A DNA stretch of 37,702 nt from an uncultured Clostridia bacterium (lineage in GTDB: Bacteria > Bacillota > Clostridia > Oscillospirales > CAG-272), in contig CANQMJ010000001.1 in NCBI GenBank assembly GCA_947624945.1, forward strand, positions 1-37,702. The letters run 5' to 3'. Within the stretch, counting starts at the first letter, position 1, and each line of letters opens with the position of its first letter. Positions 14,166-23,331 of the stretch are shown here, in pieces. The notes beneath the pieces are model-generated. The model had not been told where the DNA came from and ran no database searches. It was given only the letters and a program-made list of their open reading frames with translations. Both the position numbers and the translations under genes were made by a program.

Positions 14166-14773
14166 CGCTGATCTTATACTATCTTATCGCGGCGGCTGTC
14201 GTCGTCATCGACCAGGTGACGAAGAGGCTGGCCGTCTCGGGACTGTCCGGCATTGAAACGTACCCGCTCATCGACGGCGTTCTGCATCTCACGTATGTGG
14301 AGAACACGGGCGCTGCGTTCGGCATGATGAAGGACTCGCGCTGGGTGTTCATGGTCGTGTCGGCGGCGGCGATAATACTCCTGCCGATCGTGATAGCGGT
14401 ATACAGAAAGCGGTACCCGTTCGCGTGCGTCTGCATGGCGATGATACTGGGCGGCGGCATCGGCAATATGATAGACCGCGTGACGCTCGGCTACGTCGTC
14501 GACTTCATTGACTTCAGACTCATACATTTCGCTGTGTTCAACGGCGCGGATTCGTTCGTCACTGTCGGCGAGATAATGCTCGTCGTATATATGATACTCG
14601 AATTCATACGCGAGTCGAAAGCGGAGAGGGCGCAAAAGCTCGCCGCGGCTGCGGACGGTGACGGAAGCGTCAACGACGCCGTCACGGACGGTGATAATGA
14701 CGCCGACACGGATGCCGACGCCGACACAAACACAGACAGCGAAGCGGACGAAACGAGCGGTGACGGGAAATGA
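14162..14773 (+). CDS. lspA: Lipoprotein signal peptidase II with acidic C-terminal tail
   Basis: GGGIGNMIDR and FNGADSFVTVG catalytic-Asp motifs. ATG 14162 overlaps the ileS stop (ATGA). C-terminal roughly 50 aa are D/T/A-rich. Confidence 0.9.
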   Translation: MTLILYYLIAAAVVVIDQVTKRLAVSGLSGIETYPLIDGVLHLTYVENTGAAFGMMKDSRWVFMVVSAAAIILLPIVIAVYRKRYPFACVCMAMILGGGIGNMIDRVTLGYVVDFIDFRLIHFAVFNGADSFVTVGEIMLVVYMILEFIRESKAERAQKLAAAADGDGSVNDAVTDGDNDADTDADADTNTDSEADETSGDGK

Positions 14774-15717
14774 ACGGCTGCGATAACGTCATATTGACAG
14801 TTGATAAGGCAAACGTCGGGGCACGCCTCGACGTTTTTGTCTCCGACGGGGTAGGAGTAACGCGCTCGCAGGCGCAGAAGCTGATAGACGACGGGGACGT
14901 TGACGTGAACGGACGCGCGGAGCCGAAACGGTATCGCGTTCGCGAAGGTGACGCGGTGACGGTCGCGGTGCGCGAGCCGGAGGCGTGCGACGCAAAACCT
15001 GAGGATATAAAACTCGATATAGTCTACGAGGACGCGGATATACTTGTCGTCAATAAGCCGAAAGGCATGGTGGTGCATCCCGCGCCGGGAAACGAGACGG
15101 GGACGCTGGTGAATGCGCTCCTTTACCATTGCGGGGCGAGTCTGTCCGGAATCGGCGGCGTTCTGCGTCCGGGAATCGTACACAGAATAGACAAGGACAC
15201 GACGGGACTTTTAGCCGTCGCAAAAAACGACATGGCGCACGAGTCGCTGTCGGGACAGCTCGAACGCCACGACATGCACCGCGAATACAGAGCTCTCGTC
15301 GTGGGCAGGACGGGGGACGGAGTCATAGATAAGCCCATCGACCGCCACCCCGTCGACAGAAAGCGCATGGCGGTGAGCGACGGAGGCAGAGAGGCGAGGA
15401 CGGAGTATCACACGATCGCGGTGTACACGTCGCCGTACCGCGACACGTTTTCGCTCGTCGACTGCCGCCTCTATACGGGACGCACGCATCAGATACGCGT
15501 CCATATGGCGTATATCGGGCACCCGGTCGCGGGGGATACCGTGTACGGCGGCGGAAGAACGAAGTTCGAGCGCGCGCACGAGGAGCTGTTTCACGGTCAG
15601 TGCCTGCACGCGTACAGACTCACGCTGACGCATCCGCGAACGGGCGAAACGATGACGTTCGAGGCGCCGCTGCCGCATGATTTTGAAAAGATACTCGCGC
15701 TTCTCACCCCGTCATAA
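14770..15717 (+). CDS. rluD: RluA-family 23S rRNA pseudouridine synthase (RluD-like)
   Basis: N-terminal S4 domain, catalytic HRIDKDTTGLL motif, GRTHQIRVH. ATGA overlap with lspA. Confidence 0.9.
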   Translation: MNGCDNVILTVDKANVGARLDVFVSDGVGVTRSQAQKLIDDGDVDVNGRAEPKRYRVREGDAVTVAVREPEACDAKPEDIKLDIVYEDADILVVNKPKGMVVHPAPGNETGTLVNALLYHCGASLSGIGGVLRPGIVHRIDKDTTGLLAVAKNDMAHESLSGQLERHDMHREYRALVVGRTGDGVIDKPIDRHPVDRKRMAVSDGGREARTEYHTIAVYTSPYRDTFSLVDCRLYTGRTHQIRVHMAYIGHPVAGDTVYGGGRTKFERAHEELFHGQCLHAYRLTLTHPRTGETMTFEAPLPHDFEKILALLTPS

Positions 15718-16070
15718 AAGTTTTCGCCCGCCTTTTTCAAAAGGCGGCGAGGGGGACGGGGGCGAGCAGCCCCCGTGCCGCCCCTCTCTTTTTGCGAGCT
15801 TTTTCTCTCGGGCGTCCTTCCTCCGAGAGAAAAAGCGGACAGCGGACGCGCAGAGATATTGACTGTACGCACCGGTCGAAAGCGTATCGTTTGCCTATTT
15901 CTCGTATTTGCCGATTTTTGCGCATCGACATTCGCTTTTTCTCTTGTGTGAAAAAGGCACAAGAGAAAAAGCTTGCAAAAAGAGAATGCCGCTCTTTCGC
16001 GCTTCGCGCGACAAGGGGCTGCTCGCCCCCGTCCCCCTCGCCGCCTTTTGAAAAAGGCGGGCGAAAACTT
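15717..16070. repeat. Composite palindrome: two inverted copies of a ~175-nt hairpin-rich unit
   Basis: 15719-15774 is the exact reverse complement of 16014-16069 (56/56, checked base by base). Inner arms are diverged but alignable. Each carries its own hairpin (15798-15834 and 15935-15971). Confidence 0.9.
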
Positions 16071-16171
16071 CTGCTGAGACGGCGAAGCCTTTCACGACAG
16101 CGTTGCGCGCATAAGTGCGCGGAGCGTGCACATAAAATAAACATACCGAATAAGCAAGGAACAAAAACTAC

Positions 16172-18682
16172 ATGAAACATGCACATAAGCTCCCCACGCT
16201 TGCGCTTGCGGCGCTGATGCTCCTTTCCTCGTGCGCGCGTGACGTCGGCGACGGCGCGGACGGCACCGGCACCGGTGTCCCGGACAGCATGGACACGATG
16301 CCGGAGACTGCGTTTTCCGAGACGGGGCATCTGCTCGGCGTCTATTCCGACGACGGCGACACGTACACGTTCGGCACGTCGGTGACGGCGCTGCCGGAGT
16401 CGTGGAACCCACATGAGGAAACGGGCAGCGACGAGGAGAGCATACTCTCGTATACGACCGACACGCTGTATAAGTTCGAGTACAATAACGATTTCACAGG
16501 TGCAGTTCTCGTGCCGTCGATGGCGGAGAGCTATCCCGTGGACGTGACCGCCGACTACGCGGGGCAGTACGGCGTCGAGTCGGCAGAGACGGGGAGAGCG
16601 TATAAAATAATGCTGCGCGACAGTCTCCGTTACGATAACGGCGAGGCGATAACGGCGGCCGATTTTGTCGAATCGTTCCGTCTGATACTGTCCGAAGGCG
16701 TAAGAAACGGCGAGATGTCGGACATCGTCGGCGCGGACGAATACGCGGCGGGCGGCGGCGAGGTGTTCGAGAGCTTTATATCCGAGGATTTCGGTGCGGA
16801 CGAGTACATAATGCCGGACGCGCTCGACGTGACAGACGGCGTACTCTGCCGCGACGGATGCCCGGTCGTCGTAAACATAAACGACGGCGGGCGCTGGAGC
16901 GTGCAGTCGCTGTACGAGTATAACGAGATGCGCCGTTTCGACGGCGCGACGGCGGACGATACGGCGGCGTCCGACGCGTACGCGCATCTCGCGGACGCTG
17001 CCGACGCGGACGGTATAGTGTATCTGACGCCGGGGCTCGCCGCCGATATGCAGCTTTGCATAGCACGGCTCAACGGCTTTGACAGCGTCGAGGCGCGGTA
17101 TGAGGCGGTCGGCGATTATGCGTACACGGAATTCGAGGAGATGGCGTACGTCATAGTCGACAGACCCGCTGTCACATATGAGCGGAACGTGGGATTTTTC
17201 GCGCCGTCGGAGCGCGAGCTCGTCGTCGTGTTCGAGGAGCCGCTGACGGACGAATTCGCGCTGCTCCACAGACTTAACACGAATTTCGGGCTCGTATATC
17301 TGCCGCTCTACGAGCGCGACGGCGAAAGCTACGCGACGAGCGTTGAAACCTACGTCGGTTTCGGACCGTACGCGCTGACGGTGTACGCGGCGGGGTCGCG
17401 CGTCATGCTCGAACGCAACGCATACTGGCACGGCTACGGCGAGGGCGAGTACATAGACGGCACATACATGGCGGACCGCGTCGAGATGACGGTTTTGCCC
17501 GACGACGAGCACAGACTGCGCTCGTTTCTGTCGGGACAGATGGACGAGGTCGAGCTGTCGCCGTCCGACGCGAGAGTGTATATAGGCGGCGGCTACACGG
17601 TCTACACCGAAAGCGCGGCGACATGGATAATGGCGATGAATCCCGACGCGGAGCGTCTTGCGGAGGCGGAAAAGAGCGCAAGACCCGCGACCGAGGGTAA
17701 CGAAGTCAACAAGACTGCGCTGACGGTGCGCGAGTTCAGGCTCGCGCTGTCGTACGCGACCGACCGTGTAGGCTTTGTGCGCACGGTATCGCCGACGTCG
17801 ACGTATGCGCTCGGCATATTCTCGGACGCGGTAGTGGCGGACACGTCGCTCGGCGTGCCGTACCGCGATACCGAATACGGCGCGGACGCGATATCGGAAA
17901 TATGGGGCGACGCGGAAGCGGAATCGGCTGGATACGACGTCGACGCGGCGCGCGAATACTTCGACAAAGCATACGAGATAATGTGCGATGACATGCTTTT
18001 ATCAAAAGATGCAATCGACTCCGGCGGCTGGGAAGTGCAGATAATAGTCGGCAAGCCGACGAACAACGAATACTGGACGCGCGGACTCGAATTCCTCTCC
18101 GACTGCTGGCTCGACGCCGCCGTCGGGACGCCGTTTGAGGGAAAACTCGTCATAAAGGAGAGCCGTGCTCTCGGCGAGGTCGCGTTCTCGGACGCGCTGA
18201 GAGACGGCAGGGTCGACATGCTGTTCTCTGTCGGCTACGGCGGCGACGGCTACGAATACGACCCGTACTCGCTGCTCGGCTGCTACACGGGCGATATCGC
18301 CTACGACGCGTTTACAGATAAGAGAACGATCGAGGTAAAAGTCAAACTCGGCGAGCGCGAGGTTACGGCGAGCCTTTACGACTGGTCGCAGCTTTTATGC
18401 GGCGAGGACACGGACGCTGATATAAGCGTCGACGTGAGCCGCGGCTCGGTGCGGTCGGAGATACTGTCCGCGTGTGAGGCGGCGATACTGCGCGAGGCGC
18501 GCATAATCCCGCTTATGACGGACGCGAAAACGTCGCTGCGCGGCGAGCGCATCATGTACGGCACAGACAAAGCTGTGACAGGCATGGGACACGGCGGCAT
18601 CGAGTGGATGAAGTTCACGATGGACGACGACGACTTTTCCGACTATATAGACGAGCGCGGCGGCGAGCTCGAGTACAGATAA
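16172..18682 (+). CDS. ABC transporter substrate-binding lipoprotein, family 5 (OppA/peptide-nickel type)
   Basis: Signal peptide plus lipobox (LLSSC). YKIMLRDSLRYDNGEAITAADFVESF resembles the SBP_bac_5 signature. No permease or ATPase genes are adjacent. Confidence 0.7.
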   Translation: MKHAHKLPTLALAALMLLSSCARDVGDGADGTGTGVPDSMDTMPETAFSETGHLLGVYSDDGDTYTFGTSVTALPESWNPHEETGSDEESILSYTTDTLYKFEYNNDFTGAVLVPSMAESYPVDVTADYAGQYGVESAETGRAYKIMLRDSLRYDNGEAITAADFVESFRLILSEGVRNGEMSDIVGADEYAAGGGEVFESFISEDFGADEYIMPDALDVTDGVLCRDGCPVVVNINDGGRWSVQSLYEYNEMRRFDGATADDTAASDAYAHLADAADADGIVYLTPGLAADMQLCIARLNGFDSVEARYEAVGDYAYTEFEEMAYVIVDRPAVTYERNVGFFAPSERELVVVFEEPLTDEFALLHRLNTNFGLVYLPLYERDGESYATSVETYVGFGPYALTVYAAGSRVMLERNAYWHGYGEGEYIDGTYMADRVEMTVLPDDEHRLRSFLSGQMDEVELSPSDARVYIGGGYTVYTESAATWIMAMNPDAERLAEAEKSARPATEGNEVNKTALTVREFRLALSYATDRVGFVRTVSPTSTYALGIFSDAVVADTSLGVPYRDTEYGADAISEIWGDAEAESAGYDVDAAREYFDKAYEIMCDDMLLSKDAIDSGGWEVQIIVGKPTNNEYWTRGLEFLSDCWLDAAVGTPFEGKLVIKESRALGEVAFSDALRDGRVDMLFSVGYGGDGYEYDPYSLLGCYTGDIAYDAFTDKRTIEVKVKLGEREVTASLYDWSQLLCGEDTDADISVDVSRGSVRSEILSACEAAILREARIIPLMTDAKTSLRGERIMYGTDKAVTGMGHGGIEWMKFTMDDDDFSDYIDERGGELEYR

Positions 18683-22482: not shown

Positions 22483-22499
22483 GCGGGAGAGGAAAAACT

Positions 22500-22932
22500 T
22501 TTTGAAAAAAATAGAATTTGATACAGCAAAACCGCATCGTGCCGTAGGCTTTCTCAACCACACCTACATGCACCGTGCTCGTGCGCTGTTCGGCGCTATA
22601 GCTGACGGGCAACGTGCCGTAGGCTTCGCGGCTTCACCTACGTGCACATCGCTCGTGCGATGACGGCGCTCCCAGCGTCAAACGCAGACACGACGCTTAG
22701 ACGGCGCACTCGCCATGCCGCGAGGGAGCTGTTATGCCGAAGTGTTGACGCGGTCTACGCCCTGTCGCCTCTTTTGCCGCCGATTGAATCACATCGACGG
22801 CACGCTGTGTCGCTTTCGGGGATCATTAATGGGGCTGGGAGATTCCGCAAGCGGAATCTCCTTACGACATTGGAAAGAGTCCCTTAATACGCGTGTATTC
22901 GTCGTGCGTAGGACGAAGTGAACACTTTATGC
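22500..22932 (-). ncRNA. Candidate structured non-coding transcript (unclassified); ends are guesses
   Basis: Lies downstream of the putative - strand promoter at 22939-22967. Contains strong hairpins (22842-22865, 22776-22801) and two tandem copies of the repeat unit. No credible ORF. Confidence 0.2.
22537..22733. repeat. Left arm of the long imperfect inverted repeat (includes two tandem hairpin units)
   Basis: 22601-22733 aligns by eye with the reverse complement of 23052-23190. Long shared blocks include gccgcgagggagctgtt, acgcagacacgacg, cgctcgtgcg and ggcttcgc.gcttcacctacg. 22537-22597 is a second direct copy of 22611-22670. Confidence 0.8.
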
Positions 22933-22938
22933 TGTGAG

Positions 22939-22967
22939 CTTATAAAAAATTCACACTAATTTGTGAA
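22939..22967 (-). promoter_or_regulatory. Putative leftward promoter inside the island
   Basis: On the - strand: TTCACA (22967-22962), 17-nt spacer, TATAAG (22944-22939). Weaker match than its + strand neighbour. Confidence 0.35.
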
Positions 22968-22973
22968 AAATAC

Positions 22974-23002
22974 TTGACAAATCACGAAAAATGTGGTATA
23001 AT
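22974..23002 (+). promoter_or_regulatory. Near-consensus orphan sigma-A promoter facing right
   Basis: TTGACA (22974-22979), exact 17-nt spacer, TG-extended TATAAT (22997-23002). The next CDS is about 400 nt away and has its own promoter. Confidence 0.7.
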
Positions 23003-23008
23003 ATAGGC

Positions 23009-23325
23009 AGTTAAGGGAAAGAGGTGTTTGCAGGCCCGGCGGGGGGCTGCGAACAGCTCCCTCGCGGCGGGGCGATATCGTCGTCCAAACGTCGTGTCTG
23101 CGTCGAACCGTGTTGCGCCGTCAACGCACGAGCGTGGTGCGCGTAGGTGAAGCTGCGAAGCCTTACGGCGGCAGTTCGTCGCTGACGCGCCGACCTGCGA
23201 CACGTTTCCGCTTCGCGGAAAGTGTGGCGTTGCCATCGTTTGGACGGCGAATTTATAAAATGATGTATACTTTATGCAAAAACTAAAACAAAAAACATTT
23301 TCATTCCGACATGGAATTTTTGCAT
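23009..23325 (+). ncRNA. Candidate structured non-coding transcript (unclassified); 3' end is a guess
   Basis: Starts after the orphan promoter. GC-rich with no credible ORF. Local hairpins at 23042-23061 and 23201-23229, and a 13-bp long-range complement (23079-23091 with 23237-23249). A weak hairpin plus T-run lies near 23303-23321. Confidence 0.3.
23052..23250. repeat. Right arm of the long imperfect inverted repeat
   Basis: Reverse complement aligns with 22601-22733 (see left arm). The tail 23237-23249 is an extra inverted copy of the cg.tt.gacggcg word found at 22694-22706. Confidence 0.8.
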
Positions 23326-23331
23326 GTTCTC

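Follow-up and report, generated by a model that had tools for sequence, protein, structure and literature searches.

A palindrome between rluD and an OppA-like gene in a gut Clostridia genome is probably a doublet of a dispersed, hairpin-rich repeat unit of the Oscillospirales

The 37702-nucleotide (nt) stretch analysed in the present study (the window), which lies on contig CANQMJ010000001.1 (C1) of the metagenome-assembled genome (MAG) GCA_947624945.1 (G000) of an uncultured Clostridia bacterium of the order Oscillospirales, carries a large palindrome between an rluD-type pseudouridine synthase gene and the gene for an OppA-like solute-binding protein (SBP). Our analysis indicates that this element is probably a heads-outward doublet, i.e. 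a modular non-coding ‘hairpin-string’ unit present twice in opposite orientations, from a family of the same general kind as repetitive extragenic palindromic (REP) sequences, bacterial interspersed mosaic elements (BIMEs), REPINs and miniature inverted-repeat transposable elements (MITEs). The original prediction had rightly described the element as a non-coding foldback and had noted that no transposase lies close to it, but had treated it as a single-locus curiosity, and in this it was mistaken, as the element belongs to a large dispersed family and the odd locus would be explained as one copy of a widespread repeat. The family occurs patchily across gut Oscillospirales, dispersed and in places amplified, and, as we found no description of it in the searchable literature, it is apparently undescribed, although of a familiar REP/BIME/MITE-like kind. 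Coordinates below are positions in the window.

A repeat search of the window returned a perfect inverted repeat, 15718–15773 against 16015–16070, in which 56 nt are 100% complementary with 241 nt between the arms, and such a repeat in 37.7 kb is far beyond chance. The palindrome and every feature originally described in it are thus real, with coordinates shifted by a single base. It spans 353 bp in the doublet comparison described below (354 bp as otherwise given), and its first base touches the TAA stop codon of the rluD-type gene (15715–15717). Further inward, a second pair of arms (15785–15837 and 15933–15985) is 81% complementary, each containing a perfect hairpin, GCTTTTTCTCTCGG/CCGAGAGAAAAAGC at 15798–15811/15823–15836 on the left and GCTTTTTCTCTTGTG/CACAAGAGAAAAAGC at 15934–15948/15958–15972 on the right. 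When folded as one RNA, 365 nt gave −230.6 kcal/mol compared with −125.7±6.5 kcal/mol for shuffled sequences (z=−16). Two small hairpins had been claimed for each outer arm; the left arm does carry both, CCGCCTTT-TTCA-AAAGGCGG and ACGGGGGC-GAGCA-GCCCCCGT, but in the right arm the second is reduced to a 5-bp core.

Comparison with other genomes resolved these hairpins into the modules of a repeated unit, with the order head AAGTTTTCG, M1, M2, (M3), GAAA, a T-rich M4 and a tail, where M3 is the module not always present. The head, (A)AAGTTTTCG, is found in all exact-head copies and is followed by the M1 hairpin CCGCCTTT-TTCA-AAAGGCGG, whose stem covaries in G034 and G063 (CCACC/GGTGG, CGGCC/GGCCG and GTCAAGCC/GGCTTG..). 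M2 is a GC-rich hairpin whose stem varies from copy to copy and yet remains paired (for example GGAGGGC/GCCCTCC, CAAGGGC/GCCCTTG and CCAACGC/GCGTTGG), M3 has the form TCGCnnnC-CGCA-GnnnGCGAAA with compensated changes, and M4 reads TTTCTTTTTGCnAAGCTTTTTCTTTGCGCC-loop-G.CAAAGAAAAAGCGG, another hairpin tail taking its place in some subfamilies. In this context, the CGG/CCG and TGTG/CACA inner stems of the window element, previously read as compensated against each other, do differ as described, but they do not represent co-evolution between the arms; they are two variants of M4, as in every other copy. When copies from different genomes are compared, the similarity has a sharp onset at the first base of the head and tails off 150–200 nt downstream. 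Seventeen of 124 heads overlap a crude open reading frame (ORF) call and the units otherwise lie in spacers, and all-against-all ORF clustering of 120 loci gave no recurrent neighbouring protein (largest cluster, 13 loci). In addition, one locus (L122:83–180) has the 5′ half of M1 (AAGTTTTCGCCCGCCTTTCTCACGA) in tandem four times with a 25-nt period, and at three others (L089, L115 and L137) truncated M1 copies stand ahead of full ones, which suggests slippage or abortive copying at the head. An H-type pseudoknot between the segment before M2 and the M2 loop was considered and rejected as a general feature, as only a few copies allow it (CACGG...CCGTG).

The pairing of the three helices was assessed in a gap-free alignment of 26 distinct units. 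These data clearly show that the stems are maintained: 98.8% of cells were standard pairs compared with 83.4% for shuffled partners and 38–61% for slid partners, ten pairs were changed on both sides, and the covariation score was 0.403 against 0.120 for shuffles. A wider set of 139 distinct units with 2707 paired cells contained 39 G:T/T:G, 21 A:C/C:A and 23 other mismatches, in an alignment fitted by a model that itself favours G:U. The stems are therefore almost pure Watson–Crick, DNA-like palindromes with a weak strand asymmetry, and an attempt to assign a functional strand from G:U against A:C counts was abandoned, since the difference is weak (39 compared with 21) and biased by the model-fitted alignment.

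The exact 30-mer AAGTTTTCGCCCGCCTTTTTCAAAAGGCGG occurs in more than 120 stretches of a species-representative genome collection. The matches listed come almost entirely from MAGs of gut or rumen Clostridia with labels such as Oscillospiraceae, Ruminococcaceae and Eubacteriales, and among the carriers are Anaerotruncus massiliensis AT3, Oscillibacter sp. 1-3, Caproicibacter and Butyricicoccus. A covariance model (R1) built from the 26-unit alignment gave five hits in G000 at E≤0.01, namely two units in C1, one in C110, the short inverted end in C151 and one hit on the opposite strand of the C110 unit. The search for further copies in the own and related genomes that the original prediction had proposed was thus positive, with seven R1 matches in the sister species (G016), 29 in a member of the same family (G022), 17 in a member of the same order (G034) and 35 in A. 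massiliensis. In an even sample of the order at E≤1e-6, units were present in 12 of 151 genomes, eight of 97 genera and seven of 30 families, with copy numbers from one to at least 31 per genome. Among 18 congeners only two gave a match, and only that of G016 is convincing, the other being a single match in G001 with an E-value of 0.009. The copies within G063 score nearly alike, and bursts of amplification are therefore suggested.

We also determined how the units are arranged. Of 21 pairs of model hits separated by no more than 700 nt, 15 are heads-outward (+ then −), with spans of 251–848 bp, several of them 308–367 bp and so comparable with the window element. In 16 doublets compared, the perfect run from the head was 0–10 nt in 14, 32 nt in the G016 orthologue and 56 nt in the window, and in the 15 other than the window element the arms are approx. 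60–80% alike and normally differ in all stems. The doublet is thus a standard form of the family, whereas the perfect 56-nt arms and the long duplex are peculiar to the window copy. Because the perfect runs elsewhere are only 0–32 nt and the arms so dissimilar, a conserved role as a substrate of RNase III, as had been proposed from a read-through duplex, appears unlikely from these comparisons, and if RNA processing matters at all it is more likely to act arm by arm.

The history of the locus could be followed in related genomes. The rluD gene is present in all 18 congeners searched, the more distant of which have other neighbours there. In G005 (rluD 80% identical) the same rluD–SBP synteny is found with a spacer of approx. 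95 nt and no element, and this is an empty site of the kind that the original prediction had proposed to look for, with flanks too diverged to place the insertion point. In contrast, G016 (rluD 93% identical; a rabbit-gut MAG) has a 147-bp palindrome with identical heads at the same junction. Its rluD-side arm carries one form of M2, variant b (CAAGGGGC-GCGGA-GCCCCTTG), followed by M3, and its SBP-side arm carries variant a (ACGGGGGC-GAGCA-GCCCCCGT). The left arm of the window element is variant a, whereas the right arm matches variant a exactly over 56 nt and goes on as ...GCCCC|TTGTCGCGCGAAGCGCGAAAG, i.e. the 3′ half of variant b with its M3. As these alignments show, the right arm is a chimera of both G016 variants, with its junction inside the M2 hairpin and a conversion edge at 16015, and the 56-nt identity therefore reflects gene conversion; such a chimera is the footprint that gene conversion, or recombination between the inverted arms, leaves. 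The earlier suggestion that perfect outer and diverged inner arms reflect either recent conversion or constraint on the ends thus holds on both counts, in different parts of the arm: the first 30 nt are under constraint throughout the family, and the 26 nt that follow were made identical by conversion. Relative to G016, the middle of the window element is flipped, and it was either expanded in G000 or deleted in G016. A further difference lies just outside the element. A terminator-like hairpin (GGAGTGAGAGC-GCG-GCTCTCACTCC) stands between the rluD stop codon and the element in G016 and is lost in G000 (window 15690–15717), so that RluD ends ..LLTPS* instead of the ..LLTLE* of G016 and its stop codon abuts the repeat.

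G000 (2.34 Mb, 209 contigs, 55% GC, 96.9% complete) contains a second copy, which is split between the end of one contig (C110:8281–8429) and the start of another (C151:1–124). Within the repeat the two ends share 77 nt, through which they can be merged into a unit of approx. 195 bp, M1-M2-M3-M4, closed by a short inverted M1 (TTTCGCCCGCC-GGGAAAAA-GGCGGGCGAAAACTTTT); this assembly break is caused by the repeat. The C110 copy of G000 and the C149 copy of G016 differ only in linkers and loops. The neighbours of the G016 copies at C14:21985–22138 and C149:413–559 differ from those of C110/C151, so a rearrangement with its breakpoint inside the element has occurred between the sister species. The C14 copy has lost exactly M2 and M3, between two GGCGG direct repeats.

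The genomic setting of the units was examined in G034 and across the single units. In G034, doublets take up the spacers between ordinary genes that run in the same direction (2-oxoacid:ferredoxin oxidoreductase subunits, acyl-CoA synthetase, M28 peptidase, glutamine synthetase and others), with heads 5–25 nt past stop codons and a few to approx. 45 nt before start codons. At one such place (L187, G034:C6:42000–61500; positions 2642–2857) a unit lies within an operon, between the genes for the thiamine pyrophosphate-binding (beta) and gamma subunits of 2-oxoacid:ferredoxin oxidoreductase, beginning 6 nt past the stop codon. The units of G034 bracket successive genes, and an integron-like cassette array was therefore considered but rejected, as the genes are ordinary metabolic or operon genes and no integrase is present. 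Single units are co-directional with the upstream gene in 82 of 116 cases, at a median of 80 nt after it, and lie in 33 convergent as against seven divergent spacers. This bias is consistent with an element of the 3′ untranslated region (UTR), and just as consistent with insertion at tolerated sites together with the strand bias of Firmicutes genes.

Possible routes of mobility were then considered. Some copies of approx. 245 bp, designated type A, hold the M1–M4 body between the tips TCAGACTGTAGACAAAAC and TTTTGTCTACAACCTGA, and six of them are flanked by a direct duplication of an entire 19–33-nt target hairpin. The same tips and the same hairpin duplication are found in a 1.58-kb insertion sequence (IS) encoding a 512-amino-acid transposase that matches the NCBIfam IS1182 model NF033551 with 452 bits (cut-off 270), and in one MAG a type A MITE and this IS share a contig. 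The IS was located at L215:2290–3885, where the hairpin GGGGATAGCC-TTT-AGGCTATCCCC stands on both sides, and also at L210 and L209, the L209 copy having an in-frame TAG in the transposase gene. However, approx. 97 of 122 exact-head copies have no recognizable tips, as counted by a regular expression that fails on a few variants of the tip, and in other lineages the head follows other leader modules. Read most simply, one unit was captured by an IS1182 MITE that targets hairpins, and this MITE is one of several vehicles; with a tip-less majority, and with G000 and high-copy genomes devoid of IS1182, the greater part of the family cannot be explained in this way. The IS1182-type tips (CTGTAGAC) are absent from the window element, and all of G000 has one unrelated chance match to them (in C20). 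No carriage of units by phage was found. A plasmid search gave one 59-nt, 85% match to the head region, in an unannotated stretch of a 52-kb plasmid from a cultured human isolate of Anaerotruncus colihominis (NZ_CP094683.1:26827–26885), and this plasmid might carry units between genomes and has a tractable host.

Several of our results weigh against a mobile repeat of the REP or MITE kind. No match to the Y1/REP-associated tyrosine transposase (RAYT) domain (PF01797) was obtained in G000, in G016 or in G063, G132, G174, G091 and A. massiliensis (G041), and in G034 and G022, which do have Y1 genes, no units adjoin these. A target-site duplication was found neither around the window element (flanks ..CCGTCATAA| and |CTGCTGAG) nor around 14 other doublets. 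The 512-amino-acid IS1182 transposase gave no tblastn match in G000, and is likewise absent from G063, G132, G034 and A. massiliensis. The four units of G000 are far below REP-like abundance, and both the compensated conservation of the stems and the orientation bias would also fit a selected RNA element.

That last explanation, in which the units are selected cis-acting RNAs of the 3′ UTR or of intercistronic regions that protect the upstream mRNA from 3′ exonucleases or mark sites for RNase III or RNase E, and are abundant because they are useful, is one that we consider unlikely. It would account for the three to four hairpins that keep their pairing through compensatory change, the position of heads 0–25 nt past stop codons, the orientation and convergent-spacer counts given above, the restriction of differences between the C110 and C149 copies to linkers and loops, the excess of GT/TG over AC/CA wobbles and the strong fold of the whole window element. 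Against it, the wobble counts come from a G:U-favouring model, the stems are 95–99% Watson–Crick with approx. 1.4% G:U, unlike typical RNA families, and the orientation bias could follow from the strand bias of genes in Firmicutes. The patchy occurrence in the order and among the congeners, the near-identical copies within G063, which suggest bursts, and the unrelated housekeeping genes that the units adjoin also speak against it, and a doublet places one arm antisense. The elements of six relatives had no match in Rfam, and the only matches to Rfam 15 in the window were of microRNA type and at chance level (E-values 0.5–0.7). A decayed pair of IS1182-family MITEs, with the M1–M4 body as the inside of the MITE and the tip-less copies as truncated relics, is in our judgement quite improbable. 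The type A copies with their duplicated hairpins, the IS with the same tips, their occurrence on one contig and a weak resemblance of the window centre to the type A tail are all in its favour. Random truncation, however, would not be expected to yield a tip-less majority with one sharp 5′ boundary, the doublets of the window, G016 and G034 have neither tips nor hairpin duplications, high-copy genomes lack IS1182, and, as other leader types precede the head, capture of the body by a MITE is the simpler direction.

The two remaining explanations concern the locus itself. GC-rich hairpins directly after a stop codon could suggest a bidirectional intrinsic terminator or attenuator serving rluD and the SBP gene, but a consensus scan of 15500–16300 found no hairpin followed by a T-run (0 sites compared with 2.0 expected from shuffles), G005 manages with its 95-nt spacer and units also occur inside operons such as that for 2-oxoacid:ferredoxin oxidoreductase in G034, so that we regard this role as very unlikely. 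The same scan gave no sigma-70-type promoter in that interval. The least credible explanation is a chimeric or collapsed palindrome produced by the assembly. A 209-contig MAG in which another family copy breaks the assembly at C110/C151 gives some reason for concern. Nevertheless, the independently assembled sister species has a palindrome with the same outward heads at the same junction, similar doublets occur in many independent assemblies, and the 56-nt arms are shorter than the apparent k of 77, as deduced from the 77-nt contig overlap. A search for RluD-encoding contigs and two metagenome scans with junction 30–35-mers gave no further assembly of the locus.

Given these considerations, we favour the dispersed repeat unit and propose the following history. 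A doublet would have entered the rluD–SBP spacer in an ancestor shared by this species and its sister G016. Its middle would later have been inverted or deleted, and gene conversion would have overwritten 56 nt of one arm with the sequence of the other. The units would spread as DNA by a route beyond the known mobilizing enzymes, and their perfect stems may be kept by hairpin-templated correction, by selection or by both. Such correction, i.e. template switching within quasi-palindromes, is an established process. On a read-through transcript from rluD the element would fold arm by arm or as one long hairpin, and, by analogy with REP and Correia elements, it could then serve as a 3′ stabilizer or a processing site. 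In a bolder form, to which we give limited credence, the units would act through their structure and be under selection, setting mRNA 3′ ends, stability or intercistronic processing in gut Oscillospirales, or would be moved by a novel hairpin-recognizing enzyme that leaves no target duplication; if true, either reading would explain how 95–99% perfect stems and one invariant head are found in hundreds of diverged copies.

Of the known systems, REP sequences and BIMEs of enterobacteria and pseudomonads resemble the units in being short extragenic palindromic units with compensated stems that lie after genes and inside operons, form mosaics in alternating orientation with conserved linkers and undergo remodelling from one close relative to the next. 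In the present family, the recurrent module order comes with alternative leaders and tails. REP sequences carry a conserved GTAG-type 5′ head, which is recognized by a RAYT. The sequences are unrelated, however, the head here being AAGTTTTCG and not GTAG, and the present unit is a string of three to four different hairpins, is hosted by Firmicutes and has no RAYT; in addition, REP/BIME elements reach hundreds of copies per genome, as against four units in G000 and one to 35 or more elsewhere. As in REPINs, an inverted heads-outward doublet recurs and can fold into one long hairpin, but REPIN–RAYT systems differ in that PF01797 is lacking here from the own genome, the sister and five high-copy carriers, and the arms of the present doublets usually differ in every stem, so that each folds alone. 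IS1182-family MITEs (cf. IS1272) are similar in that elsewhere the M1–M4 body is bounded by IS1182-type tips and insertion duplicates whole terminator hairpins, whereas the window element, like most family members, is tip-less, and it has no duplication and resides in a genome without the transposase. The Correia/NEMIS elements of Neisseria and the ERIC/IRU elements of enterobacteria are likewise imperfect palindromes of 100–350 bp in transcribed spacers. Correia hairpins in transcripts are said by De Gregorio et al. to be RNase III substrates. Correia/NEMIS elements have 26-bp terminal inverted repeats and a TA target duplication, whereas the ends here are unrelated and no TA duplication is present; moreover, no promoter or IHF-type features were detected, and the long duplex is exceptional in the present family.

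The features of the locus are collected in Table 1.

Table 1 Features of the rluD–SBP junction (window coordinates)
Feature	Position	Strand	Basis
rluD-type pseudouridine synthase gene	14770–15717	+	ORF list; Pfam PseudoU_synth_2 and S4
Left copy of the 56-nt perfect repeat (conversion tract and constrained head)	15718–15773	+	Repeat search; arm alignments
Left arm M1: head AAGTTTTCG (15718–15726) and hairpin CCGCCTTT-TTCA-AAAGGCGG (15728–15747)	15718–15749	+	Sequence; stem covaries in G034 and G063
Left arm M2, variant a, hairpin ACGGGGGC-GAGCA-GCCCCCGT	15756–15776	+	M2 column pairs covary family-wide; identical to SBP-side arm of G016 orthologue
Left arm M4: TCTCTTTTTGCGAGC and hairpin 15798–15836 (GCTTTTTCTCTCGG...CCGAGAGAAAAAGC), then GCGGAC	15785–15840	+	Repeat search; module recurs at other loci
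Centre, where the tails of both arms meet; possible weak likeness to the 3′ tail of type A copies of approx. 245 bp (TTGAC..TGT.C.CACC..GGTC)	15841–15932	.	Likeness by eye
Right arm M4, a different variant: hairpin 15934–15972 (GCTTTTTCTCTTGTG...CACAAGAGAAAAAGC) and GCTTGCAAAAAGAGA	15933–15985	−	Repeat search
Right arm M3, hairpin TCGCGC-GAA-GCGCGA (− strand reading), absent from left arm	15997–16011	−	Identical to M3 of rluD-side arm in G016 orthologue
Right arm M2, chimeric: 5′ half variant a, 3′ half (..GCCCCTTGTC) variant b; only the 5-bp core GGGGC/GCCCC pairs	16012–16033	−	Pairwise arm alignments of G000 and G016; arm fold
Right copy of the 56-nt perfect repeat	16015–16070	−	Repeat search; arm alignments
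Right arm M1: hairpin 16041–16060, head 16062–16070	16041–16070	−	Covariance-model hit 15995–16070 (−), 63 bits
SBP_bac_5 (OppA-like) lipoprotein gene, 836 amino acids	16172–18682	+	ORF list; Pfam; also after rluD in G016 and G005

Upstream of rluD lie ileS and lspA, and the SBP_bac_5 gene downstream has no adjoining ABC permease or ATPase genes. Elsewhere in the window, two more perfect hairpins (255–285 and 31–68) are unmatched by the M1–M3 model; one of them, GGGGGAAAACTTTT-CA-AAAAGTTTTCCCCC, has the word AAAAGTTTTC in common with the element head, and the other is GACAAGGGGGACTTTCT-TGCGA-GAAAGTCCCCCTTGTC. A gene-free island at 22483–23330 has a strong TTGACA-N17-TATAAT promoter between GC-rich inverted arms. 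This island (22.5–23.3 kb) was considered as a relative of the element but belongs to a different repeat family, with no M1–M4 modules in common.

The main interest of the family lies in a head that is invariant across many genera, in hairpins compensated copy by copy and in amplification without a known enzyme, its body being linked to an IS1182-type, hairpin-duplicating MITE and yet amplifying without any known transposase. This raises the questions of how REP-like elements spread without RAYTs and how near-perfect hairpins persist in diverged copies, for which the cultured carriers, A. massiliensis and the A. colihominis isolate with its plasmid, make the family tractable. Such repeats break MAG assemblies, as at C110/C151, create spurious ORFs and mediate inversions, deletions and rearrangements between sister species, and they may also shape the mRNA ends of abundant and poorly studied gut Clostridia.

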